Virus genome (UHGV): UHGV-1672213
Source: a virus
DNA: 12,748 bases
Reading direction: 5' to 3' (one strand)
Below the pieces are notes generated by a model. The model had not been told where the DNA came from. It ran no database searches and worked only from the letters and a program-made list of their open reading frames with translations. Position numbers and translations under genes: made by a program. This document shows, one piece after another, positions 1 through 12,677 of the stretch. How positions within the stretch are numbered: the stretch's first letter is position 1; each line of letters opens with the position of its first letter.

Positions 1-318
1 CCCCGGCGGCTGACCCGTTCCCGCCGCGCCTGTGGCTTCCGGAACGGCAATCACATACAGCTCGCCAAACGGGTCAGTCTGGCGATAAGCCTCGACCATA
101 CGCGCCAGCTGACTTCCCGCACCACAAATCTGGCGTGCATAGTCTGCCGACGGCATCAGTACCAGACTGTTGGCAACAATCTCTGCACCGTTATTGGCAT
201 GACCAATCAGCAGCGATGCTCCGCTGTCCTGTGCAGTATTCGCCGCCGAGTTATCCATTTCCGCATAAAACAGCGGAACCAGCGTATTCGACGGAATGGT
301 GTTAAAGCTTATCGTCAT
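1..318 (-). CDS. Putative tail sheath-like protein, N-terminal part (gene continues beyond window start)
   Basis: Minus-strand ATG at 316-318 with SD AAGGTG 7 nt upstream; ORF open to position 1. N-terminus MTISFNTIPSNTLVPLFYAEMDNSAANTAQ resembles, from memory, the DUF3383-type sheath proteins of SfV/Mu-like contractile tails. Lies downstream of the head-tail joining genes. Confidence 0.45.
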   Translation of the reverse strand, partial: MTISFNTIPSNTLVPLFYAEMDNSAANTAQDSGASLLIGHANNGAEIVANSLVLMPSADYARQICGAGSQLARMVEAYRQTDPFGELYVIAVPEATGAAGTGQPPG

Positions 319-472
319 CGGTGTTCACCTTTTTATTCACGCGCCGGATATCACCCGCTGCTTCACGGCGCAGCCAGTAGTTGTTCTCGTCAACATTTCG
401 CCCTTCGGCGGGCAAAAGGTCGCCGCGGGCAGGGTCAGGCACTGACCGCCCTTTAACAGGTTTGACAAACAT
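302..472 (-). CDS. Small basic hypothetical protein (56 aa) in the tail module
   Basis: ATG at 470-472 preceded by SD GAGGA (5-nt spacer); stop TAA at 302-304; overlaps the sheath-like start by 17 nt. Below the ORF-track size cutoff. Family not recognised. Confidence 0.45.
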   Translation of the reverse strand: MFVKPVKGRSVPDPARGDLLPAEGRNVDENNYWLRREAAGDIRRVNKKVNTDDDKL

Positions 473-480
473 GAGGATCC

Positions 481-1041
481 TCAGGAAGGAAGGGTTATTT
501 CGGTGTGATGTTCGATATCGCCGTCAGGCCCGTTACCGGGATCGAGATAATCGACATCAATCGCCAGCGTTTGCAGTTCATCCAGACTGTTCAGATCATC
601 CTGCTGGCGGGTATCGTCTTCAGTCAGCTCGCTGATGACCGAAAAATCGAACTGATAAATCAGCTCATGACGATTCAGATCCAGCAGCGTGCCGCCGTCA
701 TAGGTAATCGGGTTACCGCACGCTTCCGGGTTCCAGCCCAGCAGGGCCTTAAAGAGCATCTGCCGGACATCGTCCACCACATCATACGAGGCAAACTGAC
801 CGCGCTCATCACGCCCGTTACTCAGTATGACAACCACGGAGAAGCCCTCTTTCAGCTCCTGCCAGTAGTCGGTCTGGCTTTTGTTTTCTCCCGGAGAGTC
901 ATCACCCGGTACCACATACGCCGCCGGGAGTCTCAGCTTTCCGACCTCCGGCAGATTTTTGAACTGTGCCGCGCCTGCCACCCGGTTTTCAAAATACGGA
1001 CAGCGGGCACGCAGCGCAGCAATAACAGGCGTCAGTTTCAT
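481..1041 (-). CDS. Phage structural protein (186 aa), possibly tail completion/terminator type; acidic C-terminus
   Basis: ATG at 1039-1041 overlaps the upstream stop (ATGA); tight packing within the structural operon. Position after the gp10-like gene suggests a neck/tail role; specific family uncertain. Confidence 0.55.
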   Translation of the reverse strand: MKLTPVIAALRARCPYFENRVAGAAQFKNLPEVGKLRLPAAYVVPGDDSPGENKSQTDYWQELKEGFSVVVILSNGRDERGQFASYDVVDDVRQMLFKALLGWNPEACGNPITYDGGTLLDLNRHELIYQFDFSVISELTEDDTRQQDDLNSLDELQTLAIDVDYLDPGNGPDGDIEHHTEITLPS

Positions 1042-1544
1042 CTGTGTCGTCGCTCCGGCTTCAGTGATTTACGCAATTCCCGCGCCAGAAAATAGCGTGT
1101 CCAGCTGCGGTTCTTTTCAAGCGCTTCCACCATGAAGTTATTACGTGGAGCCAGTCGCCAGCCGCTGCCACCGGATGCACCACGATGATGACTACGACGA
1201 CGTTTTGCTCCTCCCCGGACACCAAAAAACAGAAACGCCGGATAGAAGTCACCAGAGATCATCCGGTTCCCCTTCCCGTTGCGCTGGTTAGGGGCAATGC
1301 GTGTCATAAAACCGGCTCGCTTTTTACTGGCTCTCGGCACCATATAACCAATCGAACGAGCCAGGCGTCCGGTCTGATAACCGGGGTTTTCACCCGGTGC
1401 CGACCGCGCACGGCGCATCACCAGCCGACGGGCATCACGCATATGACGCTGCCCAATCGTGACAAACGCCCGCCGGACACGGGCGCGGTTAAAGCGCATC
1501 TCGGCGGGCTGCTGAACATCAACGTGAAAAAAGGGAGTCGCCAT
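1038..1544 (-). CDS. HK97 gp10-family head-tail joining protein
   Basis: ATG at 1542-1544 with SD GGAGG 5 nt upstream; basic Arg-rich 168 aa protein; position after the head closure gene. Confidence 0.65.
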   Translation of the reverse strand: MATPFFHVDVQQPAEMRFNRARVRRAFVTIGQRHMRDARRLVMRRARSAPGENPGYQTGRLARSIGYMVPRASKKRAGFMTRIAPNQRNGKGNRMISGDFYPAFLFFGVRGGAKRRRSHHRGASGGSGWRLAPRNNFMVEALEKNRSWTRYFLARELRKSLKPERRHR

Positions 1545-1929
1545 TGCTGCCTCCGTGACTCTGCCTACATTCGCCCAGCTCCGTACACTCCAGCAGCAGA
1601 AAGCGCCGCGCCCCGTTCAGATCACGCTGACGTTTCACCCGGTACACACTGTCATCACAGACCACCTCATAATCAGCGGTGATCCCCCGGCGGTAACGAA
1701 TGGTGATGTAATGGGTGATGGCGTCCCCGGTCTGCGCGGTTTCCTGCCAGGTGGTGGCACTGGTCTGGATAACCTTCGCCCATGTCCGGAACGTAACCGG
1801 GTATTGAGGCTCCACGCCAAAGTTATCCGCGGGCATATCCACCCGCAGGCGGATCAGGACGCGTTTATTCAGTTCACCGGGGTCCGGCAGAATGTAGGTT
1901 GCGCTGGTCTGCGCCTGACGAATTTTCAT
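1519..1929 (-). CDS. Phage head closure / head-tail adaptor protein
   Basis: ATG at 1927-1929 overlaps the connector stop (ATGA); C-terminal LLLECTEL-type motif typical of this family; 136 aa. The 3' end overlaps the next gene by 26 nt. Confidence 0.65.
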   Translation of the reverse strand: MKIRQAQTSATYILPDPGELNKRVLIRLRVDMPADNFGVEPQYPVTFRTWAKVIQTSATTWQETAQTGDAITHYITIRYRRGITADYEVVCDDSVYRVKRQRDLNGARRFLLLECTELGECRQSHGGSNGDSLFSR

Positions 1930-2249
1930 TGCGGAAAGTACCTGTACGGGCCGACAAGCCAGCCAAAACTCTGCGGCATGTCGAGTTTCTCCACTTCCGT
2001 AACCGACGAGCGGTTTTCGTAAAAATGGCTGATAAGCATCAGCATCCCCAGACGAATATCATCCGGCAGGTGCAGCCCGTCCGGATCGCTCTCCGGAATG
2101 GTTTCATCCGGTGCATAGAGCTTCCGGTTCAGATACGTTTCCGTCCGCTTTTGCGCCGCACAGGCCAGCAGTTGCAGATGGCGGTCATCAGCATCGAAAT
2201 CCTCATCCAGCCGGAGTTGGGCTTTAATCTCTTCCATTGTCAGAAGCAT
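1926..2249 (-). CDS. gp6-like head-tail connector protein
   Basis: ATG at 2247-2249 with SD AGAGGG 6 nt upstream; N-terminus MLLTMEEIKAQLRLDEDFD typical of gp6-like connector proteins; 107 aa. Confidence 0.7.
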   Translation of the reverse strand: MLLTMEEIKAQLRLDEDFDADDRHLQLLACAAQKRTETYLNRKLYAPDETIPESDPDGLHLPDDIRLGMLMLISHFYENRSSVTEVEKLDMPQSFGWLVGPYRYFPQ

Positions 2250-2251
2250 AC

Positions 2252-2452
2252 TCAGCCCTCTTTACTGGTCGTGGCTTTTTTCTCTTTTGCCGCTTTACTG
2301 CTTTTTGCACTGGTTCCGCGCTCTGCTAACCCGGCCTGAAGTGCAATCTCCTGCACCCGGGCAGGAAGCGCCCCGTCGTCATACTCACCGGCCCGAATGA
2401 CCTCAACACGCATACCGTCCGGTGACCATTTCAGATCTTGTTTCAGGATCAT
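2252..2452 (-). CDS. Hypothetical small protein (66 aa), Lys/Ser-rich C-terminus
   Basis: ATG at 2450-2452; stop TGA at 2252-2254 immediately precedes the SD of the connector gene; sits between capsid and connector genes. Confidence 0.45.
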   Translation of the reverse strand: MILKQDLKWSPDGMRVEVIRAGEYDDGALPARVQEIALQAGLAERGTSAKSSKAAKEKKATTSKEG

Positions 2453-2473
2453 GATTCTTCACCCGTCAGAACA

Positions 2474-2495
2474 GGGGGCGCGGTTCCGCGCCCCT
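2474..2495 (-). promoter_or_regulatory. GC-rich stem-loop 8 nt downstream of the major capsid stop
   Basis: Palindrome GGGGCGC-GGTTCC-GCGCCCC (7-bp all-GC stem). No U-tract follows on the minus strand, so it is not a canonical intrinsic terminator. Confidence 0.5.
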
Positions 2496-2501
2496 GAGTG
2501 A

Positions 2502-3707
2502 TTACGCCGCTGCAATCTTCAGCAGTTTGATGGCCTGCGAATCGACCAGCATCCCGCCGGTGCGCTTGGTGGTATAAAAACCGACAAACGGTTTATTGGT
2601 GTACGGGTCACGCAGAATGCGGGTGCCGATACGGTCAACGATGGTGTAACCCCGTTTGAAGTTACCAAATGCAATGGCTTTCGCATCAGCGGCGATATCC
2701 GGCATCTGTTCGTTTTCAGCGATACCGTAACCCGCCAGAGAGGACGGCTGCCCCAGTTCCAGCCCCGGACGCCACAGATAGTTACCCTCGGTGTCTTTCA
2801 GCAGACGGATGGCAAACAGGCTGTTGTTGTTCATCATGAACTTCGCGCCAGTGCGGTGTGCCTTACGCAGCGTGTAAATCAGTTTGATAATGGCGTCTGC
2901 GGTCACCGCAGTCGCGTCGCCGGATACAATATGCTGAAGTTTGCCGAACGCCCGGACCTTATCGGTTTCATCAGTGGATTCATACGCCAGGAACCCTTTC
3001 GGCTTCTTGGTGCCATCGCCTGAGGTAAAGGCAATTTCTTCCTGTTCGGCAAATTCGGTTGCCAGCTCGCTGTTGATCCAGGCCTCCACGTTGAAAAAGG
3101 CATCGTCCAGCATTTTCTGGGTGGCCTGCGGGTTACCGTAGATTTCCCCCATGAGAGGTTCAATCAGCTCCAGTCTGGAGGTGGCAGTCTGGGATCGCGT
3201 ATCCGTTTCCCCCACCCATCCGGAAGCCGTACCGCCCAGATTCACCAGTTTTTTGTAGTCGGAACCGCCAACGGTGATCACCGTGGCTTCCTGACGCATC
3301 ACCACTTCATCTTTAAGCAGGTTGAGAATGTTGCGATCCAGCGCTTCCGGCACGGCGTAGCCACCGTCTTCATCGGTACCCACCTGCAATGCCTTACGCT
3401 CCAGATCGCGCAGACCGTCTTCACGGCCTTTACGCAGGAAGCCCACAAACGCCTCTTTATGCTCGGTGGCCAGTTTATTTTGCGCTCCACCTGCCGGACG
3501 TTTCAGCTCAAGCAGCTCTTTTTCAAGGTCGCTTTTGAGATTTTCCAGCTCGCTGAGTTTCCCGTTCAGGGTTTCCACCTGCCCGGCAAGCTTGCCTTTT
3601 TCCTGCTCAATCGCATCCACGCGCTTGTCGTTCTTTGCTTTGAAGTCGTCAAACTTCTGCTGCAGCTCCTGCGCGACCTGTTCGACATCTTTAATATCAA
3701 CCGCCAT
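2502..3707 (-). CDS. Major capsid protein, HK97 family, with N-terminal coiled-coil delta (scaffold) domain
   Basis: ATG at 3705-3707 with SD AGGAG 7 nt upstream; 401 aa; N-terminal ~100 aa coiled-coil (KLSELENLKSDLEKELLELK) followed by an HK97-type capsid fold region. Confidence 0.9.
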   Translation of the reverse strand: MAVDIKDVEQVAQELQQKFDDFKAKNDKRVDAIEQEKGKLAGQVETLNGKLSELENLKSDLEKELLELKRPAGGAQNKLATEHKEAFVGFLRKGREDGLRDLERKALQVGTDEDGGYAVPEALDRNILNLLKDEVVMRQEATVITVGGSDYKKLVNLGGTASGWVGETDTRSQTATSRLELIEPLMGEIYGNPQATQKMLDDAFFNVEAWINSELATEFAEQEEIAFTSGDGTKKPKGFLAYESTDETDKVRAFGKLQHIVSGDATAVTADAIIKLIYTLRKAHRTGAKFMMNNNSLFAIRLLKDTEGNYLWRPGLELGQPSSLAGYGIAENEQMPDIAADAKAIAFGNFKRGYTIVDRIGTRILRDPYTNKPFVGFYTTKRTGGMLVDSQAIKLLKIAAA

Positions 3708-3721
3708 CGTATTTCTCCTGA

Positions 3722-4372
3722 TTAGAAGTTCAGATTTTTCAGTGCATTCAGTGCAGAGCCCACATCCTCAGCGTCGCGCAGGGACAGTGCGCCATAGCCC
3801 CCGGCCATGAATGCTTTGGCCTGGGTACGGGAGAGTCCGACATCACGCAGGACTCTTTCGATTTTTTTCTGTTCGGGGATTTCCCCGCGGGCCAGCGCGT
3901 TCTTGACGTCGCTGATCCGCGCCTCGTCGTTAGATGGAAACGTCACCAGACTGACTTCCCAGAGGTCGATTTCTTTCAGCAGAAAGGCTTCTTTCGTCCG
4001 GTCGTATTCCCAGTCCTTCAGGACGTACCCAATAGAAAGGCCGGTTAACGAACCGGCCTTCATGTGTGCATGTGCGCGTTTTGCCAGGGGATCATCATCA
4101 ATGAGCAACCGTCCCCTGACGTAAAGCCCGACATCGTCTTCCTTCATTTCGGTGTAAACACCGATGGGTTCATCCATGCGGTGCTGCCAGAGCAGCGCAG
4201 GTAACGCTTTTCTGTCACTCCACGCCCGCAGGGAAGCAGCAAATGCCCCGGACATCACCACATCATCGTGGCTGTCCTTTACACCAAAGACGGAGCCATA
4301 CCCTTCAAACTCACCGGAGTCACTGACAGATTTCAGACTCAGCGGTACATCAAGACGTTGTTTCGTCTGCAT
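3722..4372 (-). CDS. Prohead maturation protease, HK97 family
   Basis: Motif EFEGYGSVFGVKDSHDDVVMSGAF typical of HK97 prohead proteases. Start reassigned to ATG 4370-4372 (MQTKQ..., SD AAGGA 8 nt upstream); the track start at 4408 lacks an SD and overlaps portal by 59 nt. Confidence 0.8.
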   Translation of the reverse strand: MQTKQRLDVPLSLKSVSDSGEFEGYGSVFGVKDSHDDVVMSGAFAASLRAWSDRKALPALLWQHRMDEPIGVYTEMKEDDVGLYVRGRLLIDDDPLAKRAHAHMKAGSLTGLSIGYVLKDWEYDRTKEAFLLKEIDLWEVSLVTFPSNDEARISDVKNALARGEIPEQKKIERVLRDVGLSRTQAKAFMAGGYGALSLRDAEDVGSALNALKNLNF

Positions 4373-5591
4373 TGGCGTTATCCTTCTGCTTACCGGCTTT
4401 ACTGCCATCGGAGGGTTTCGTGGTCATGTTCATCGGTGTGAGATAGACATCCCCACCGGGACGCGGATTCATATCTTCCAGGTCGCGGCAGTCATTGGGA
4501 GAGTAAATTCCCCAGTTAATCCCGGTGGCGTAGGCTTCAAAACGGGACTTCATATCCCCGCGCAGTAACGCCCCGGCGTTAAATTTGGCGTAATAAACGC
4601 CCTGCTTACTTTTTCGTACCAGTCCGGTGTTGATCCGCTGCTCAATGCGGGTCAGATACGGCACCAGTGAATAGTTGATAAATCCCAGCCCCAGTTCTTC
4701 GATATTGTTGAAGGTGGCGCGATCGGTGTTCTGCACCATGTGCAATGGCACACGGAACAGACGACAGATTTCTTCAAGCTGAAACTTGCGGGTTTCCAGG
4801 AACTGGCTGTCCTCGGCGTTCAGCGCCATCGACTTCCAGTCCAGCCCCATCTCAAGGATCATCGGGCGGTGAGCATTACCAAGCCCGGTGTGACGCTCCT
4901 CAAAATCTTTCTTCAGACGCTCATAAGCCTGATCCGACAGCGTCTGCTCTGTACGCAACACACCGGACGTCACCGCACCATTGCTGAACAGTCTGGCCCC
5001 GTGCTCTTCGGTCGCAGCTGCCAGCGATATTGCCTCGCGGGCATAGGCGATGGGATTCAGTCCCACCAGACCGTCCAGCGTCAGCGTGCGCACATGCCAG
5101 ATATCTTCCTGGCTCAGTACATCCGTGGAGCCGTCCGGGAATGTGACCTGGTAAACCGGTTCCCAGCTACTGTTAAGCTTCGGTACCACACAACCTGGGT
5201 CGACGGGCAGCAGTTCAGCCACTTCGCCAAATGCTTTCACTTTGTAGGCGTAAAAGTTTCCCCGCAGGCACAGACAGGTGACCACCAGCTCCCAGAACTC
5301 CTGCGGCGTCATATAGCCATTGGGATGCGTGGAGATCAGCTTATGCAGACGTTCGCCGGTGGCTCTCTGTTTCAGGCTGCCGTTCAGGTGATACAGGTTG
5401 CAGGGCAACATCCCGACCGACTCCGCCAGCACCCTGACGCAGGAAAAAACCGCCGTCAGTCGCATGGCCCGCTGGCTGCTGATCTGCTTTCCGGTATAGG
5501 TGTCATATGACAGCCCGATAGCATCCGCCAGCTCTGCTGGCGTGGTCACCGGTGCGTCACTTTTTCGTTGAAATAATCCCGAAAAGAACAC
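4350..5591 (-). CDS. Portal protein, HK97 family
   Basis: 413 aa; GTG start at 5589-5591 preceded by SD GGAGGT (5-nt spacer); position between terminase and protease. Confidence 0.88.
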   Translation of the reverse strand: MFFSGLFQRKSDAPVTTPAELADAIGLSYDTYTGKQISSQRAMRLTAVFSCVRVLAESVGMLPCNLYHLNGSLKQRATGERLHKLISTHPNGYMTPQEFWELVVTCLCLRGNFYAYKVKAFGEVAELLPVDPGCVVPKLNSSWEPVYQVTFPDGSTDVLSQEDIWHVRTLTLDGLVGLNPIAYAREAISLAAATEEHGARLFSNGAVTSGVLRTEQTLSDQAYERLKKDFEERHTGLGNAHRPMILEMGLDWKSMALNAEDSQFLETRKFQLEEICRLFRVPLHMVQNTDRATFNNIEELGLGFINYSLVPYLTRIEQRINTGLVRKSKQGVYYAKFNAGALLRGDMKSRFEAYATGINWGIYSPNDCRDLEDMNPRPGGDVYLTPMNMTTKPSDGSKAGKQKDNANADETTS

Positions 5592-5773
5592 TATTTACCT
5601 CCGCCGACAGACGGCTGTGTACGGTCGAGATATCGCGCCACCAGCCACGACCAGAACAGGCACAGCGCCCCGGCAACAACAAACCCCGCCGGGGGATAAA
5701 TCAGCCAGGCACCATACGCCAGCAAAAGCGCACCCAGCACGCCCACCAGAGGCGCGAGAATCAGCATGATCAT
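5591..5773 (-). CDS. Small hydrophobic membrane protein (60 aa, two predicted TM helices)
   Basis: ATG at 5771-5773 with SD GAGGT; begins 9 nt after the TerL stop and its stop overlaps the portal start by 1 nt. Both hydrophobic stretches are long enough to span a membrane. Confidence 0.5.
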
Positions 5774-5784
5774 AATTACCTCAG

Positions 5785-7518
5785 TTAAAGCGAGCGGATC
5801 CCGTAGGACTCAATGTGATCAGACAGCGTGTCTTCTTTCTCGTACAGCATGGCTCTGCCAACCGCCATAATCAGCGCAACTGCACCATCAATTTTGTTTT
5901 CCGCCTGCTCCTTGACGGGCTTCACCACATCATCGTTACCCGGAATGGTTTTGCCGACCACGTTGCCGATACACCAGGTCATGATGGGATTGCCGTCATG
6001 ATGAAAACGCCCCGATTCAATTGCCGCTTCCAGCTCTTTCATCGGGTCGGACATGTTGGTGTAGTTCTGAATGATGGTGATGGGGTTCAGGTCTTCATCC
6101 GCAAGGTCATGCGACAGCCCGGTCGCCCCGAAGGGGTCGATGGGTGACTCACTGACCGGGCTGATTTTGTTCGCCGCTTTGGCCTCCTCGAGGATGTAGC
6201 GATAATCCACCTCCGCACCATCGGTAACGGTCAGAACGCCCATTTCCACCCATTTCTGAAAGCGCTCGGCTGTCCGGCGATCTTCATTTTTCTCGACGCT
6301 GTACACCGTGTCATACGGTACCCAGAAGCGCGGAGCCACACTGTAGTAATGCGTTTTACCGTCAATCTCGCGGGTATAAAGTCGCGCCATGCTGTTCATA
6401 TCCAGCTTACGCGCCAGGTCAAAGGCCAGAATGCACGGCTGCCCCTCGAACTGCTCAAGGGTCAGTGATTTATCCTCGCAGCTCTGCCAGCTCACCAGGT
6501 TGAAATACGCCGAACGCGCCGACACCCAGATATTGAGGTGTTTTGTTTTAAAGACGTTTGCCAGACGGGCGTTATTTTTCGCACGCTGCTGCTGACTTAA
6601 CAAAAATTCGCGATAAACCGACACGCCAATATTTGGATTGGCTTTTTCCAGCACCTGCGGGTCGGTCCAGTCGTCACCTTCATCAACGGTATAGATGATC
6701 CCGAACAGTTCATCGTTAGGCACCGAGCCGTTGAGCATCTCGATGACTTCCCGCCGCTTGTCGTAGCACGGCCCCTCAATGTTGTACCCGGCAGTAGTAA
6801 TGGCCCACATCAGTGGCTGACGTCGCGCCCCCATCCCGGTAAGCATCGTGGTGTAAAGCGCATCGGTGGCGTGCTCGTGATATTCATCCACCACCGCACA
6901 GTGGGGTGATGAACCATCACCGGGGTTACCGATCAGCGGTTCAAACCGCGCGCCATCCTCCGGACGATTCATGTTTGAGGCGTTAACCTCAATCCCGAAC
7001 GCTTCCGTCAGCATGGGTGTGCGTTTACACATCAGTCTTGCCGGACGAAAGACTTCCCATGCCTGTTTCTCTGTCGTGGCACCGGAATACACTTCCGCGC
7101 CAAACTCGTTATCACAGGCAAAACAATACAGGGCAACACCGGCAGAGATTGCCGATTTGCCGTTCTTACGGGGAATTTCGGTATACACCTCCCGGAAGCG
7201 GCGCAACCGGGTGCCTTTATTGACCCAGCCAAACGCACAGCAGATCACAAATAGCTGCCACGGCTCCAGCGTGATGGGCATCCGTTTAAATGCCCACTCA
7301 CCCTTGGTGTGCGGCAACAGCTGAATAAATTTCGCGGCCCGTTCAGCCAGGTCCTTGTCGAAGCGGTAACGAAACGACTTACTTTTTTCCTCCATCAGGT
7401 CATCAAGATGGCGCTGGCAGGCCTGAATCACAAACTGGCAGGCCACAATCTTTCCGCGCACGACATCACGGGCATACTGATTGGCAGCATTTACGTTGGG
7501 GTAAGATTTCCGGCTCAT
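5785..7518 (-). CDS. Terminase large subunit
   Basis: 577 aa; ATG at 7516-7518 overlaps the TerS stop (ATGA); Walker A-like GKS in [10 protein letters not shown], ATPase and nuclease domains consistent with HK97-type terminases. Confidence 0.93.
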
Positions 7519-8009
7519 GATTCGATGATTTTCAGAAACGGGTTAGTGGCTTTCTTCTGCCCCGCCAGGCCAATCAGACGCTGGCGGCTGCTGGGGTCGA
7601 GTCCGAGCATTGCCCCCGTACTGCTCATCTCGGACTCCTGTTCTTTTTTGGCGGTCAGCTCCGGATTTTTGACCATACCGCCCATTGCACCGGTGATGGT
7701 GTTGCCCTGTCTGGCAATATTTTTCACGGCACGTCGCCAGAACTCGTAGGCCACGCACCACCGCTCAAGCACCGCGAGGTCAGTCACGCACAGCAGACCC
7801 TGACCGCAGAGTTCTTTAGTTGTCAGTTGCCACATGATCGTAGCGAGAGGGAGATCTTCTTCAGCGAACCACTCCGGTGGCTCAACACCTTTGATGGGCG
7901 TAAAAACAGGTTCATCTTTATTCAGGGCTCGCTTGCCGGGGTTTCCGGCCAGCGCCTTGCGCGCCGTTGGCTTGGGGCGACGCCCGGAACGCCCCGCCGT
8001 TCCAGCCAT
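7515..8009 (-). CDS. Terminase small subunit, P27 family
   Basis: Start reassigned to ATG 8007-8009 ([14 protein letters not shown]..., SD AGGAG 8 nt upstream); the track start at 8018 is a GTG. Basic N-terminus and position next to TerL. Confidence 0.82.
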
Positions 8010-8018
8010 ATGCGGCAC

Positions 8019-8134
8019 TCCTGGTTAAATTTCATTTTTCGCGGGTATAAAAAAACGATGGGGCGGGCAGTCCGGAAGACGTCAGGTCACAGGGATTTGA
8101 CCCGCCCCTCCCCTCTGGCAGTGGGAGCTGGTTC
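8019..8134. other. HNH-terS intergenic region with long GC inverted repeat plus A7/T7 tract; candidate cos/packaging-initiation region
   Basis: GGGGCGGG (8053-8060) and CCCGCCCC (8101-8108) flank internal palindromes (TCCGGA, GACGTC); a 7-nt A run at 8042-8048 (U-run on the minus strand). HNH sits immediately upstream of terS as in HK97-like phages. Confidence 0.3.
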
Positions 8135-8485
8135 TTACTTCAACCGTTCACGGGCCGTCTTCGCCTTATGACACGGCCAGCACAGACTCTGCAGATTACT
8201 GTCGGCATCAGTGCCGCCATGTGCTTTAGGGATGATGTGGTCAACGGTTTTCGCCTCACGCACCACACCGGCACGCAAACACAACTGACACAGGCCTTTG
8301 TCACGCTTGAGCGCACGTTCACGGATAACATCCCATTTCGAACCATAACCGCGCTGGTGTCTGGACTGGCCCGGCTTGTATTGCTTCCAGCCTTCACTTT
8401 TGTGGCTTTCGCAATAGCCTGACGGGTCAGTTGTGGTATGGCGGCAGCCGCGAACACGGCAGGCTTTTGGGGTTCGTGGTGGCAT
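8135..8485 (-). CDS. HNH homing-type endonuclease (terminase-associated)
   Basis: Cys pairs CRVRGC/CESH and HNH core DHIIPKAHGG...N...LCWPCH. Start reassigned to ATG 8483-8485 (MPPRTPKACR..., SD GGAG 5 nt upstream); the track start at 8554 has no SD and would overlap the upstream terminator. Confidence 0.85.
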   Translation of the reverse strand: MPPRTPKACRVRGCRHTTTDPSGYCESHKSEGWKQYKPGQSRHQRGYGSKWDVIRERALKRDKGLCQLCLRAGVVREAKTVDHIIPKAHGGTDADSNLQSLCWPCHKAKTARERLK

Positions 8486-8492
8486 GCTGGCT

Positions 8493-8520
8493 CCAATAAA
8501 AAGCCCCGCGACGCGAGGCT
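8493..8520 (-). terminator. Intrinsic terminator closing the AT-rich cargo island
   Basis: Minus-strand RNA stem AGCCUC/GGGGCU (one G-U pair) with 7-nt loop, followed by UUUUUAUU; lies between the 67-aa gene stop (8551) and the HNH start. Confidence 0.5.
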
Positions 8521-8550
8521 TAGACAGAAAAAACACCGGATAAGATCTGG

Positions 8551-8754
8551 TCATTCTTCCTTTTTAATAATGACTTCTCGAGGGCGCAATTGTTGGATAG
8601 CACGACAAATACAATATGGAATAACTGCCCATGCTACTCCCATTGCTGCACCTGCAGCCTGTTGTGGAGCACTCTGAGCACCGAAAACCCCGAGGATTCC
8701 TTCAATAAATCCAATAGCACTACACAAAAGACTGATGACCCAGAGAATTTTCAT
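8551..8754 (-). CDS. Small membrane protein (67 aa, two predicted TM segments, basic C-terminus)
   Basis: ATG at 8752-8754 with consensus SD AAGGAG 9 nt upstream; sample stretch 8701-8760 counts about 35% GC versus about 63% in a structural-gene stretch; followed by its own terminator. Confidence 0.6.
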   Translation of the reverse strand: MKILWVISLLCSAIGFIEGILGVFGAQSAPQQAAGAAMGVAWAVIPYCICRAIQQLRPREVIIKKEE

Positions 8755-8871
8755 AAACCCAAACTCCTTTTAAATAAACACATTACTAGGATAATTCTCA
8801 TAAAATGTTAGTAAAGTATTTTCAGGAAAATAGCGTATCACTGCCTATTTTTGACACTGATGCTGGGATAA

Positions 8872-9246
8872 TTATTCCGGTCGCTGGAGTTGCTCATGAT
8901 GATACAGAGCGAGAATCAGGTCATAAGACCCTTGCCTGTCTTTGTAACCAGTTTTATCAACCAATTCAGCTTTACTGATTCCGGGTAAATCAAGAATCAG
9001 ATTCGCAACTTCAATTGCCCTTTGGTACAACTTACCGCCCTTTTTCTCCCCATGCAGTGGTTTTACATTCTTCAGGTAACCGCTATCCGCCAGGGCGAGA
9101 AATGTTGCCCTTGGGCATATCTTCTTTCTTGACGATTCGCTTTCTGTAACCTCTGCGACAGCTGCATCCCATGCATCACGAGGAGTCATTGAGCTATCAG
9201 CCACCAAATGATAAGCGATTAAAGCAACGTGAGCGTATTGAGACAT
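8872..9246 (-). CDS. Hypothetical cytoplasmic protein (124 aa), cargo island
   Basis: ATG at 9244-9246; no signal peptide or TM; AT-rich context; family not recognised. Confidence 0.55.
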   Translation of the reverse strand: MSQYAHVALIAYHLVADSSMTPRDAWDAAVAEVTESESSRKKICPRATFLALADSGYLKNVKPLHGEKKGGKLYQRAIEVANLILDLPGISKAELVDKTGYKDRQGSYDLILALYHHEQLQRPE

Positions 9247-9284
9247 AATGCATCCATATACAAAAATCTAATGATAAGACTTTT

Positions 9285-9728
9285 CTAATATGAACACTGT
9301 GATCTCACATATTCTTGCAGGCCATTCAATTGGTTAGTTATGGTTTCGATGCGCTCTCTGAGAACGAAATAATCCCGTTGAGCGGTGTCAGTAAGTCTGG
9401 GGCTGGAAGCATCATCCACGCCGGAGGCGGCGGTGGTTTTATGCTTGTCCGGACAGACTGCTTTGACGTGCAGCCACTTACGACCAGCAGAAACATCAGC
9501 ACGAAGACTTTCGATAGTCGCGTTAGCATCAGCAAGCTCCTTTGTGTATCTGGCGTCGAGTTCTGCTACATCACGTTGACGCTTCTGCATATCAGCGATG
9601 ATGGATGTGGCTTTATCGCGCTGTTCTTTGTAGGTAATGGCGTTATCACGGTAATGATTAACAGCCCATGACAGGCAGACGATGATGCAGATAACAAGAG
9701 CGGAGATAATCGCGGTGACTCTGCTCAT
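9285..9728 (-). CDS. Rz: i-spanin Rz
   Basis: N-terminus [34 protein letters not shown] matches lambda Rz from memory; TM anchor plus coiled-coil; ATG overlaps the R stop (ATGA). Confidence 0.9.
9338..9529 (-). CDS. Rz1: o-spanin Rz1 lipoprotein, embedded in Rz in the +1 frame
   Basis: Lipobox LLVVSGC, proline run PPPPPAW and LNGIIS as in lambda Rz1. Start placed at ATG 9527-9529 (SD AAGGAG 7 nt upstream); the track start at 9535 is a TTG. Confidence 0.8.
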
Positions 9729-10201
9729 GCCTCAATCTCTCTTACCGTTCCGCCAGCTTCTTTGAATTTTGCAATCAGGCTGTCAGCCTTATGCTCGAAC
9801 TGACCGTAACCAGCCCCCGGCAGTGAAGCCCAGATATTGCTGCAACGGTCGATAGCCTGACGAATATCGCCGCGATCAATCATTGGTAAAGCGCCACGCT
9901 CTTTAATCTGCTGCAGCGCAACAGCATCCTGGCTTTTCGGAGAGAAGTCTTTCAGGCCAAGCTGCTTACGGTAGGCATCCCACCAACGGGAAAGAAGCTG
10001 GTAGCGTCCGGCGGCTGTTGATTTGAGTTTGGGGTTTAGCGTGACAAGTTTGCGAGGGTGATCGGAGTAATCAGTGAATAGCTCTCCGCCAACAATGACG
10101 TCATAACCATGATTTCTGGTTTTCTGCCGTCCGTTATCCGTTCCTTCTGACCATGCCACCATATCGAGGAAAGCCTTACGCTGAGGATTAAGATTTTGCA
10201 T
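9725..10201 (-). CDS. R: Endolysin, lambda R-type lytic transglycosylase
   Basis: 158 aa, near-identical by recall to lambda R ([54 protein letters not shown]...), including the catalytic Glu in WSEGT. Confidence 0.95.
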
Positions 10202-10505
10202 TTTTCACCCCTGTCAGTCGTTCCCAGAAGTACGTCAGTGCAACCGAACCCATCGCACCACTAATCCCCGCTGTCGCGAGAATCATGTAAATACTGAATC
10301 CACTTTCGATGCTGATCAGGCCACCAATAACACCGGTGAATCCTGATACCACTATCTGAGCCAGAGCATTTATCCAACTCCACGTTGCTTTACTCTGCTT
10401 CACATCTATCAGGTAGCGGACCAGACCGCCCCAACCTGCGATGATCAGCAAAACGAGCCAGAACGCTCCGGCAAGGCTCTCTTTTTCGTGCATATGAATA
10501 GCCAA
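10188..10505 (-). CDS. Putative holin (3 predicted TM helices), not lambda S-like
   Basis: Immediately upstream of R; 101-105 aa with three hydrophobic segments and a charged C-terminus. Start ambiguous: TTG at 10503-10505 or ATG at 10491-10493, neither with a strong SD. Confidence 0.7.
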   Translation of the reverse strand: MAIHMHEKESLAGAFWLVLLIIAGWGGLVRYLIDVKQSKATWSWINALAQIVVSGFTGVIGGLISIESGFSIYMILATAGISGAMGSVALTYFWERLTGVKNAKS

Positions 10506-10534
10506 TGTTTCGCCGCCGACAAAAGGCCGGGACG

Positions 10535-11032
10535 TTAAATGTCAGAAATCAGACTCACGGGGTAATTTAACGACAAAGCACGGAGTTGAAGATCCCCACA
10601 AGCCTGGAATAAAAAAGCCAGCGACAGGCTGGCAATGTGAGGGTAACGCAAAGTGCTTAGAAACAAAAAAAGGCCGCCATCGGCGACCTTCGAGGTATCT
10701 AGCGTGCTGGATACTTTCAGCTTCGCCTTCAATTCAGCGTTGATTTCTTTCAGGCGATCAACATCGTTTTTAAGTTTTTCAATGTCTTGCCCTTTATTAT
10801 CAAGGTCGCGCTGAAGACCTTTAATAATTTCTGTTTGGGCCGCCTGTACTTCTCGTGTCGTCTGGAGAGACTTATCAATATCATCAACTTGGTTAATCAA
10901 GCGTGTACCGAAAAAGCCTACAACTAACATAGTTATCCCAACCATAAAGTTGAGAACCCAGACTTTTGTTCCGGAAGCAGTGTTTGGAGTTTCGTCGATA
11001 AAGTGCACCTTATGCCAGTTAAAGTTACCCAA
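10535..11032 (-). CDS. Hypothetical membrane-anchored coiled-coil protein; boundaries doubtful
   Basis: N-terminal TM (VWVLNFMVGITMLVVGFFG) followed by a heptad-rich stretch (DIEKLKNDVDRLKEINAELKAKLK). The only in-frame starts are TTG at 11030-11032 or GTG eight codons later, without a clear SD, and the frame reads through two intrinsic terminator hairpins. Confidence 0.3.
   Translation of the reverse strand: MGNFNWHKVHFIDETPNTASGTKVWVLNFMVGITMLVVGFFGTRLINQVDDIDKSLQTTREVQAAQTEIIKGLQRDLDNKGQDIEKLKNDVDRLKEINAELKAKLKVSSTLDTSKVADGGLFLFLSTLRYPHIASLSLAFLFQACGDLQLRALSLNYPVSLISDI
10609..10633 (-). terminator. Intrinsic terminator (distal of a tandem pair upstream of the holin)
   Basis: Minus-strand stem GCCAGC/GCTGGC with 5-nt loop, followed by UUUUUU (plus-strand A run 10611-10616). 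Confidence 0.55.
10662..10688 (-). terminator. Intrinsic terminator (proximal of the tandem pair)
   Basis: Minus-strand stem GGUCGCC/GGCGGCC (7 bp, one G-U) with 3-nt loop, followed by UUUUUUUG (plus-strand A run 10664-10670). Confidence 0.55.
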
Positions 11033-11120
11033 CGTCTGCGCAGATCGTTAGATTCGGCAACATTGTAACTGGATAAGGAATAGAAAACCTTGGAATTTTA
11101 AGAAGAAACTGATTGATCGA

Positions 11121-11210
11121 TTATTTAACGAGCGAACACATCCATACACCCCAGACGGGTACTACGACAAAGGCCATGAAATAAGTAACTTTTGCTTGAA
11201 TGTTTTGCAT
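11121..11210 (-). CDS. Candidate small hydrophobic peptide (29 aa)
   Basis: ATG at 11208-11210 preceded by SD AAGGAAG; translation MQNIQAKVTYFMAFVVVPVWGVWMCSLVK has a single hydrophobic helix and a C-terminal Lys; stop TAA at 11121-11123. Below the ORF-track size cutoff. Confidence 0.35.
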   Translation of the reverse strand: MQNIQAKVTYFMAFVVVPVWGVWMCSLVK

Positions 11211-11395
11211 TTCGCTTCCTTAGCAGTCCGATAAGTACTGTCTGCTCATCCAACCTAACGAATGTAGATCAGAATGACAAGTCTTTCGCGCTAATTTCAA
11301 TTTGATATCTCTTCGTAAACATGATGGCGCGAAATATTACGCATGAAGTGCTTCTACATCAACATAAAAGTTACTTTTTTTGTGTTCACAGCATG

Positions 11396-11425
11396 TAAAG
11401 TAAAAGCCCCGCACGATGGCGAGGC
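11396..11425 (-). terminator. tR'-like intrinsic terminator downstream of the Q gene
   Basis: Minus-strand stem GCCUCGC/GCGGGGC (7 bp, one G-U) with 6-nt loop, followed by UUUUACUUUA. Confidence 0.55.
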
Positions 11426-11479
11426 TGTTAATTCTTTGTCGACCAACAAAGCTATGGCGACGATATCAGATTTACATGA

Positions 11480-11508
11480 AATATAAGCGTTTCAGTTCGG
11501 TTTTGCAA
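11480..11508 (-). promoter_or_regulatory. PR'-like sigma70 late promoter (putative Q engagement region)
   Basis: Minus strand: -35 TTGCAA (11503-11508), 17-nt spacer, -10 TATATT (11480-11485). The -35 overlaps the last Q codons; the predicted start is about 50-75 nt upstream of the tR'-like terminator, matching lambdoid PR'-qut-tR' layout. Confidence 0.45.
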
Positions 11509-12181
11509 GACTTACGTGCAAACTTGTCGCCTTTTGTTGTGAACGTGATCGCGTTACTGAGATAAGCGCACCGCTATCGAGTCGCATAAAGCAGCTACGC
11601 ATTGCCAACCAGTGAGGCAGGTATGTCTCTGTCCAGGTGGATTTCGCCACGCCAACCAGTTCCGCCAGCTTCTGGTATTCGTAGGCATCTTTCCCGACCA
11701 ACCCTGCTTTGACATCCTGCGCTGCCAGCCATATCAGCTTCTTCAGGCGCTCCATGGTCTTGCCTGCCACCCTCTTCGCGCCGAGATACCCCCTGAATTC
11801 AGACCACGCCCACTGGGTGATCGCCACCTGGTATTCAAAGCTGATGTTTTCACTGTAACTCCACAGCAACCACGCTTTCTGATGTTCTTCGAGAGACAGA
11901 ACCGCGCGGCGCCATGAAGATGTTGAGAACTCAACCTGGCTGACCAGTGCAATGGATGAACCTTTTGCGTACGACTGCTTACCGGAAATCGGCGGATTAT
12001 CCAGCGTAATCATCTTGCCCGTTACCTCATCCAGAATGCGCGGCTTCTTTCGTTTATATGTACCAGTATCAAATTGTGCATGCTCCAGCCAGGCTTCAAG
12101 CTGGCCTTTCGTTGCTCCGCTCAAATCAGCAGTAGCCACAATGAGTTGCTCGCGGACATACTGTAAATATTGGGTATTCAT
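11492..12181 (-). CDS. Putative late-gene antiterminator Q (non-lambda type)
   Basis: 229 aa; ATG overlaps the ylcG stop; sits between rusA-ylcG and the lysis genes, the canonical Q position, and is followed by a promoter and terminator. Sequence family not confirmed. Confidence 0.65.
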   Translation of the reverse strand: MNTQYLQYVREQLIVATADLSGATKGQLEAWLEHAQFDTGTYKRKKPRILDEVTGKMITLDNPPISGKQSYAKGSSIALVSQVEFSTSSWRRAVLSLEEHQKAWLLWSYSENISFEYQVAITQWAWSEFRGYLGAKRVAGKTMERLKKLIWLAAQDVKAGLVGKDAYEYQKLAELVGVAKSTWTETYLPHWLAMRSCFMRLDSGALISVTRSRSQQKATSLHVSLAKPN

Positions 12182-12318
12182 GCGGCAGCTCCTTTCAGTG
12201 TTTTGGCGTAATTCTTCAGTATCCGGTAATCGGTCAAAACAGAACCGGGGAAACGATATAAGCGCAGGCGCATCCAGCGGTGGCGAAGACGTTCTGCCAT
12301 ATAAGACTCAAACATCAT
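12178..12318 (-). CDS. ylcG: YlcG-like small protein (46 aa)
   Basis: Translation [46 protein letters not shown]; start overlaps the rusA stop and stop overlaps the Q start (both ATGA); same position as ylcG in the DLP12 nin region. Missed by the ORF track on size. Confidence 0.7.
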
Positions 12319-12677
12319 TCATTCCCCAGTTCGGTGATGGTCAGCTCCAGCTTCCCACCTTTGGTAACGGGCATCTTCACAACGCGGTAATCAACGACCT
12401 GAGCATCATCCAGCCAGAAACCTGCTTTGGTGAGTGCGTCAAAAGAGGCTTTTTGTAGATTATCCAGGTCACGGCGACGGCGATCCGGCATGTGGCACTC
12501 AATGCGGATTTTCACAGGCATAGCCAGACCGATATCCAGCATTGAGCCTTTAATGATTCGGGCGACGTTATCGCGGTATGCCTGCCCTTCTGCGCTGATG
12601 TGCGTGCGCCCTCGATTATGGCGGTAGTAGCGGTTATTGCTCGGCGGCCAGGGTAGTGTGATGTGGTAAGTATTCAC
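12315..12677 (-). CDS. rusA: Holliday junction resolvase RusA
   Basis: 120 aa, near-identical by recall to E. coli RusA ([36 protein letters not shown]...[10 protein letters not shown]...); GTG start at 12675-12677 overlaps the upstream stop (GTGA). Confidence 0.93.

Follow-up and report, generated by a model that had tools for sequence, protein, structure and literature searches.

A DUF6979 gene and a predicted small membrane protein cassette are independent cargo at the lysis/packaging junction of an SfI-like prophage

The window analysed here is a stretch of 12,748 nucleotides (nt) from UHGV virus genome UHGV-1672213. It is an SfI-like lambdoid prophage: positions 8100-9800 share 98.6% identity with Shigella phage SfI and 99% with a prophage of E. 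coli LR-62-2. Between the spanin gene Rz and the HNH endonuclease gene it carries two open reading frames (ORFs), one for a soluble protein of 124 amino acids (aa) that belongs to family DUF6979 and one for a 67-aa membrane protein. We conclude that this block is real accessory cargo and that it consists of two independent accessory units, stacked in a hypervariable spanin-HNH slot. The 67-aa gene appears from its sequence to be the core of a mobile, self-contained unit of predicted promoter, ORF and terminator, a textbook moron. Our explanation of the whole is a late DUF6979 gene beside a 67-aa exclusion moron that would be expressed in the lysogen; taken in its entirety this is plausible, and we would stop just short of calling it probable. 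All genes of interest lie on the minus strand, and gene order is given in the direction of their transcription.

Results

The two genes are distributed independently

An initial annotation read the two genes as one module, with a layout of the exclusion, abortive-infection or toxin-like kind. The genes are indeed adjacent and co-oriented. Among 5426 complete E. coli genomes, the 67-aa gene with its flanks was found in 52 and DUF6979 in 249, and the full block with both genes is present in 52, so that every 67-aa gene in this set adjoins DUF6979. However, 51 of the 52 copies of the 67-aa gene are at least 99% identical and therefore represent a single, near-clonal recombinant arrangement in E. 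coli, and about 197 of the 249 genomes that bear DUF6979 lack the 67-aa gene. Viral contigs give the same picture from both sides. DUF6979 lies upstream of the 67-aa gene in 18 of 65 contigs, and the other 47 have the 67-aa gene without it; conversely, 53 enterobacterial-type DUF6979 genes on IMG/VR contigs are followed by the 67-aa gene in 17 cases, and otherwise by a convergent ORF, KilA-N or unknowns. The 67-aa protein also has homologues at sites without DUF6979: downstream of Rz and a 74-aa ORF in two Rahnella prophages, in a P4-like island of Morganella, and in the tail modules of a Yersinia prophage and of Edwardsiella phage Edno5.

Alignments place a cassette boundary between the two genes. 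About 197 prophages have DUF6979 only; their nucleotide homology to the window ends at 8920, 16 codons ahead of the DUF6979 stop. Homology to the small-gene cassette begins near 8819. In the DUF6979-only loci of ST131, ECONIH2, M8 and phage 4A7, a terminator (GCCTCGC-TTTTA-GCGGGGCTTTTT) lies about 20 nt past the gene and is followed by a convergent 60-aa ORF. The terminator that had been taken to close a two-gene module belongs to the small-gene cassette, DUF6979 having its own terminator copy elsewhere. Against PADLOC-DB 2.0, DUF6979 gave no match and the 67-aa protein gave only a sub-threshold one to PycC (E 0.026, over 27 transmembrane residues). The distribution has largely refuted the two-gene reading already, and we consider it very improbable.

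The block is accessory and its slot varies among relatives

The interval between Rz and HNH differs among relatives that share the same HNH and terminase genes. It is 26 bp in SfV, empty in vB_EcoM-720R4, and about 290 bp without an annotated gene in SfIV; in SfII it holds IS911 and a 206-aa ORF. The HNH start codon is the exact point where homology to the cargo-free relatives restarts: the match to 720R4 and SKA5 ends at window position 8485, also the true HNH start according to the annotation in E. coli LR-62-2.

The block (8486-9284) has a G+C (GC) content of 42.4%; the window as a whole has 52.9% and the structural genes (1-8485) have 55.7%. Among 799-bp intervals, the block falls within the lowest 4%. 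GC at third codon positions (GC3) is 0.28 in the 67-aa gene and 0.41 in DUF6979, compared with 0.57-0.65 in HNH and terminase. The 67-aa gene, at 43.6% GC, thus differs in composition from its neighbour HNH (56%, GC3 0.57).

The features that the initial annotation had described here were found as stated: a markedly AT-rich block, two minus-strand ORFs between Rz and HNH (8872-9246 and 8551-8754), a consensus Shine-Dalgarno sequence (SD; AAGGAG at 8769-8764, 9 nt before the ATG) and an intrinsic terminator (8496-8521) around the 67-aa gene, a cytoplasmic 124-aa protein and a 67-aa protein with two transmembrane (TM) segments. Its claim of classic moron architecture holds for the 67-aa gene, with its variable presence, own terminator and deviant GC, and fails for DUF6979, for which no promoter-like site was found. 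Profile searches matched neither protein to a structural or lysis family, and the block is not conserved at ordinary GC across related phages. Because of this, and because the slot varies among relatives, the label of cargo stands. Accessory genes between Rz and cos are of a familiar kind, as is the textbook moron among them; both members here are uncharacterised.

The 67-aa gene lies in a conserved cassette

The cassette is about 320 bp long (about 8496-8819) and consists of a -35 element, a 16-nt spacer, a -10 element, AAGGAG, the ORF and the terminator. We aligned 18 diverged copies with their flanks and took the majority-base fraction in each segment (Table 1). Homology among these copies extends from about 65 nt 5' of the ATG to the terminator T-run. 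Between copies of the gene the proportion of synonymous differences (pS) is 0.6-0.97, so that synonymous sites are saturated, and the proportion of nonsynonymous differences (pN) is 0.11-0.22. The promoter-like hexamers and terminator stems have been kept despite this saturation, which argues for selection and for the ORF being a real gene; the substitution pattern indicates strong purifying selection on the 67-aa gene.

Table 1. Majority-base fraction by segment in the alignment of 18 cassettes
Segment	Majority-base fraction
Upstream flank	0.56
-35 TTTACT	0.99
16-nt spacer	0.69
-10 TATCCT/TATCAT	0.95
SD	0.92
ORF	0.86
Stop to terminator	0.61
Terminator stems	0.97-0.98
Terminator loop	0.52
T-run	0.97
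Downstream flank	0.49

In the window, the terminator has a stem (8521-8501) of 9 pairs, 6 of them G-C, with a 3-nt loop and a T-run, and lies 16 nt before the HNH start; a 43-nt stretch folds at -15 kcal/mol (z = -2.1 vs shuffles). Of 47 distinct contexts, 43 have the same stem, with a variable loop, 3' of the 67-aa gene. In 53 of the 65 viral contigs the 2.5 kb upstream of the cassette include a lysis gene, and in 49 the 2.5 kb downstream include a terminase or HNH gene. In most phages the cassette occupies this lysis/packaging junction, across Nu1/GpA, DUF1441/GpA and P27-TerS/HNH packaging types and several types of lysis cassette. There were no copies of the gene in 72,556 plasmids searched, and among 50,697 phage records it was present only in SfI and Edno5. 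The SfI copy (NC_027339, 37695-37895) is 100% identical and is unannotated in both the GenBank and RefSeq records.

The terminator stem (GCCTCGC...GCGGGGCTTT) is present twice in the window, at 11403-11425 on the minus strand and at 8500-8519, with an expectation by chance of 0. The copy at 11403-11425 is 67-89 nt downstream of the stop of the antiterminator gene Q, where a tR'-type late terminator is expected. In two other loci (L175 and L184) the same stem flanks the cassette on both sides. This shared stem may act as a recombination "linker" at module borders. A different hairpin (AGGCATTCACTGAGTGCCTG) stands directly 5' of the cassette -35 in loci L127, L129, L146, L152 and L004, and is missing from the window; it may be the end of an upstream unit or an operator.

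In the Morganella P4-like islands (L006-L009, 3530-8566), an 800-aa protein without a family match precedes the 67-aa homologue, which itself overlaps a 114-aa ORF (phrog_13007) at the start of the latter. A PD-T4-9 defence system, with A and C subunits matched at E 1e-93 and 2e-56, follows about 1.1 kb downstream of the homologue.

The 67-aa protein is a predicted two-helix membrane hairpin

The 67-aa protein has 45 homologues across Enterobacterales. Its AlphaFold (AF2) model has a predicted local distance difference test score (pLDDT) of 87.7 and shows a helical hairpin, in which two hydrophobic helices (residues 2-24 and 29-56) are joined by a 4-residue turn and followed by a C-terminal tail that is charged and unstructured. 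By the positive-inside rule, Lys2 and the many Arg and Lys residues at the C-terminus imply an N-in/C-in topology; the hairpin is predicted to lie in the inner membrane. The turn and helix 2 are invariant from E. coli to Morganella (A-P-Q-Q-A-A-x-A-A...A-x-x-V-I-P-Y-C), and the motif of the invariant segment is SAPQQAAGAAMGxAWAVIPYC.

Searches of Pfam, NCBIfam and PDB sequences gave no significant match to this protein. For YebO, the HK97 gp15 family, there was no Pfam match at E <= 0.1 save a sub-threshold one to T4SS_pilin. Nor was there a Pfam or PHROG holin match, only the topology being holin-like. Both proteins matched solved structures at chance level only, by sequence and by profile (MGMT, E about 1; caspase-4, E 0.3). 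The initial annotation recognised neither family; profile libraries do hold both (PF22399/phrog_5039 and phrog_12304), each as function unknown.

DUF6979 is a widespread family that follows Rz in enterobacterial phages

The 124-aa protein is a full-length member of PF22399, scoring 99.6 bits against a gathering threshold of 27 with residues 1-120 aligned to model positions 1-126, and it is also in phrog_5039. Its maximum 15-residue hydropathy is 1.2, with no hydrophobic segment, and its structural model is confident and all-helical. That model matched no solved fold. A NusB-like fold was considered on the basis of weak, recurring NusB/Fmu-N matches and rejected (hhalign probability 0.1%).

The family comprises 238 clusters at 50% identity (E <= 1e-3), mostly of stand-alone proteins of 125-135 aa, and genome matches come from Bacteroidota, Bacillota, Proteobacteria, Acidobacteriota and several archaeal lineages. 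Conserved residues are A8, A11, A25, W26, A29, K42, C44, P45, F49, L52, G56, L95 and L114, and the family motifs are SxSSRxKxCPRxAFLGLCE and, outside the enterobacterial phage clade, NGQMDVVxALW. In that clade RQGSYDL replaces the NGQMDVV of the rest of the family, whereas K-x-C-P-R and W26 are kept.

Rz is immediately upstream of DUF6979 in 45 of the 53 enterobacterial-type genes, and the 38-nt spacer between them is nearly identical across all E. coli versions. We found no sigma-70-like site on the minus strand that could serve as a promoter of DUF6979 in a scan of 8000-11500. In 8 of 25 contigs, more distant phage members are flanked by a 269-aa Q-like protein on one side and the holin on the other; the name Q-like is tentative and comes from a sub-threshold match to a DnaJ-type zinc finger, as on a Salmonella Antiterm protein. 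In the DUF6979-only loci, the convergent 60-aa ORF (WP_001205136 and relatives; L107/L108/L109 3672-3854, L002 409-591) shares its terminator with DUF6979. This ORF has no PHROG or PADLOC match, and its layout recalls lambda bor.

No conserved neighbour of DUF6979 emerged across 80 genomes from clustering of flanking ORFs or from Pfam and PADLOC tallies of 121 immediate neighbours. Nuclease and defence genes form a scattered minority of these neighbours, among them HNH (5), McrB-type AAA_5 (4), Mrr (2), type I methyltransferases and PDC-M62. In Tenacibaculum (L028 1264-8014) DUF6979 stands between a PDC-M62 pair (Septu-like ATPase and HNH) and McrBC, in Paenibacillus loci it abuts an HNH protein, and in a Bacillota metagenome-assembled genome (L061 4007-5437) it is fused to an uncharacterised C-terminal domain of 340 aa. 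We found no paper that mentions DUF6979, PF22399, the PHROG numbers or the protein accessions, and the SfI and SfIV genome papers discuss neither gene.

Layout of the window

The features of the window are collected in Table 2.

Table 2. Features of the window in order of minus-strand transcription
Feature	Position	Strand	Basis or detail
RusA	12315-12677	-	profile/annotation assignment
YlcG	12178-12318	-	profile/annotation assignment
Antiterminator Q	11492-12181	-	profile/annotation assignment
AT-rich gap, Q to holin	10506-11491	-	
LydA-type holin	10188-10505	-	profile assignment
Lysozyme	9725-10201	-	
Rz i-spanin	9285-9728	-	PF03245 E 5.6e-40; phrog_13 E 7.6e-72
Rz1 o-spanin, embedded in Rz	9338-9535	-	ORF list; lipobox VVSGC
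Spacer from Rz stop to DUF6979 start, 38 nt	9247-9284	-	weak SD (GGAT)
DUF6979 gene, 124 aa	8872-9246	-	ORF list; soluble, all-helical
Junction segment: final 16 DUF6979 codons and ~50 nt	8820-8920	-	megablast break at query position 49; alignments
Promoter-like element of the cassette	8788-8815	-	-35 TTTACT 8815-8810, 16-nt spacer, -10 TATCCT 8793-8788
Shine-Dalgarno AAGGAG	8764-8769	-	sequence; 9 nt 5' of ATG at 8754
Gene for 67-aa two-helix membrane protein (predicted)	8551-8754	-	phrog_12304 E 2.1e-44
Intrinsic terminator of the cassette	8496-8521	-	stem GCCTCGC/GCGGGGC, loop GTC, T-run
HNH endonuclease, first gene of packaging block	8135-8485	-	PF01844 E 3.6e-16
P27-type small terminase	7515-8018	-	
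Large terminase	5785-7518	-	
Portal, protease, capsid	downstream of large terminase	-	

Two further features were noted. The interval between Q and the holin is a second AT-rich insert, with 42% GC. It holds a 165-aa ORF (10535-11032) with a TTG start, whose product has one hydrophobic segment and then a coiled coil; terminator-like hairpins lie at 10669-10691 and 10617-10633, within the 3' part of this ORF. Only 3 of the 5426 E. coli genomes have the complete insert, annotated there as hypothetical, and LR-62-2, the closest relative, has only about 320 bp at this position. Between the large terminase and portal genes, a hydrophobic 60-aa ORF (5591-5773, minus strand), annotated as YmfR in E. 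coli, is a further small membrane protein embedded in the packaging module.

Discussion

A proposed mechanism

DUF6979 travels with Rz and has no detectable promoter, and we therefore read it as the tail of the Q-antiterminated late transcript. In lambdoid phages, Q-modified RNA polymerase ignores intrinsic terminators, so the late transcript should run from downstream of Q through the holin, lysozyme, Rz/Rz1, DUF6979 and the cassette to HNH and terminase. On induction, the modified polymerase would thus read through the cassette terminator into HNH/terminase. DUF6979 would be a late gene on the lysis transcript, with a cytoplasmic accessory role in regulation, nucleic-acid binding or counter-defence. 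This late accessory role, possibly one of binding nucleic acid, is the weakest step of the account, and we hold it with low confidence. The cassette would also be transcribed alone from the repressed prophage, its transcript ending before HNH, and the 67-aa hairpin at the inner membrane would exclude superinfecting phages, most likely by blocking genome entry. We favour exclusion because of the cassette's likeness to the HK97 gp15 moron, the restriction of the gene to phages and satellites, and the presence of PD-T4-9 about 1.1 kb away in the P4-like island. By this analogy, superinfection exclusion at the genome-entry step is a function that we propose only tentatively.

Several observations weigh against this account. 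The putative promoter in the window matches 8 of 12 consensus positions, which is under the scan threshold, and it reaches 9 of 12 in 16 of 47 other contexts. In Edno5 the start of the 67-aa gene abuts the tail lysin gene, implying that its own promoter is not always needed. The 67-aa protein matched no known exclusion, defence or holin family. The DUF6979 copy in the window has an isoelectric point (pI) of 7.0 and is not basic (the family median is 9.1), and the link between DUF6979 and defence genes is a low-frequency case of guilt by association; indeed, no specific support was found for any DUF6979 function. Finally, the 53 of 65 cassette copies that lie downstream (<=2.5 kb) of lysis genes, in the same orientation, fit a lysis-related role too.

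Other functions for the two genes

A lysis-related role would make the 67-aa protein a lysis component, such as a class II holin, a pinholin-like protein, an antiholin or a timing factor, and DUF6979 a lysis accessory, both of them late and lytic only. Besides the position of the cassette just downstream of lysis genes, such a role is suggested by two TM helices, a Gly/Ala small-residue motif in helix 2 and a charged C-terminal tail, all of them class II holin-like, and by phage DUF6979 genes that flank lysis cassettes, either directly behind Rz (45 of 53) or, in 8 of 25 distant cases, with a Q-like gene on one side and the holin on the other. However, no holin family was matched, and the host phages already have complete sets of holin, endolysin and spanin, of at least four types; the window itself has its LydA-type holin at 10188-10505. 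Moreover, copies are found in the Yersinia and Edno5 tail modules and in a P4-like island that lacks lysis genes, SfV and 720R4 lyse without either gene, and the DUF6979 family is found mostly in non-phage genomes, archaea included. A conserved private promoter, if the predicted element is one, and terminator would also be unexpected for a holin. We consider a role in lysis quite unlikely.

The same moron architecture would also suit a lysogenic-conversion gene whose target is not phage susceptibility but host physiology, such as virulence, transport or tolerance of envelope stress. Host physiology is affected by many small membrane proteins of prophages (PMC3594210), and the invariant turn and helix 2 suggest that a conserved host membrane partner is bound. 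Homology gave this reading no support, and the gene's limitation to phages and satellites, its absence from plasmids and its place beside a defence system in a satellite hotspot all lean toward a phage-related function; we regard conversion as unlikely. It is scarcely credible that the two genes are passengers of a recombination hotspot, decaying or without function. The slot is highly mosaic, and a terminator stem that recurs at module borders could drive recombination; against this, the 67-aa gene is under strong purifying selection, its regulatory signals are conserved, and DUF6979 has a confident fold and 238 clusters at 50% identity.

Significance

Lambdoid phages are expected to have cargo at their lysis/packaging junction, and current understanding is not overturned. 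The cassette is a clean natural example of a predicted complete transcription unit moving between unrelated phage backbones. The 67-aa gene is common in prophages of E. coli, Shigella, Salmonella-like hosts, Rahnella, Pantoea, Yersinia and Morganella. If its product blocks phage entry, it would be a very small and easily testable exclusion determinant, with a bearing on the host range of therapeutic phages and on the annotation of small ORFs, the gene being missing from the SfI RefSeq record. The DUF6979 family is large, spans bacteria and archaea, and has a confident model to which no solved structure is related; a function found here would therefore carry over widely. In its most ambitious form, our account would make the product of the 67-aa cassette the founding member of an undescribed, widespread family of superinfection-exclusion proteins of the inner membrane, borne by prophages and satellites and spreading as a unit of about 320 bp through recombination at the shared terminator "linker", and DUF6979 a late phage factor of new fold, a counter-defence protein or regulator with cellular relatives in defence islands; we regard this extension as doubtful.

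Comparison with known systems

The 67-aa protein resembles class II holins and the S21 pinholin in its size class (about 65-70 aa), its two TM helices, its small-residue packing motif, its charged C-terminus and its location near lysis genes. It differs in that its cassette has a terminator and a putative promoter and is also found away from lysis genes; at several loci, a genuine S21-like holin (family F7) co-occurs with the 67-aa gene.

T4 Imm and P22 SieA are phage proteins embedded in the inner membrane, where they block DNA entry and protect the cell during injection. The 67-aa protein is unrelated to them in sequence and differs in size and topology, so that the likeness is a conjecture about function.

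In position, there is a parallel in lambda bor, a non-essential cargo gene that is expressed independently of the late genes from the Rz-to-cos slot. The block in the window occupies the same slot, downstream of Rz/Rz1 and upstream of cos/terminase, and in the lambda-like phages 4A7, 1W and 3W DUF6979 stands exactly between Rz and cos. Whereas bor is a convergent lipoprotein gene, the genes in the window are co-oriented with the late operon and unrelated to Bor.

Finally, HK97 gp15 is a small, moron-encoded inner-membrane protein that blocks genome entry (Cumby et al., 2012, reviewed in PMC3594210). It shows no sequence relation to the 67-aa protein, and its gene lies in the tail operon rather than at the lysis/packaging junction. 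The two are alike in that each is an AT-deviant unit within a lambdoid late operon, with its own terminator and its own promoter (putative for the 67-aa gene), and missing from close relatives.

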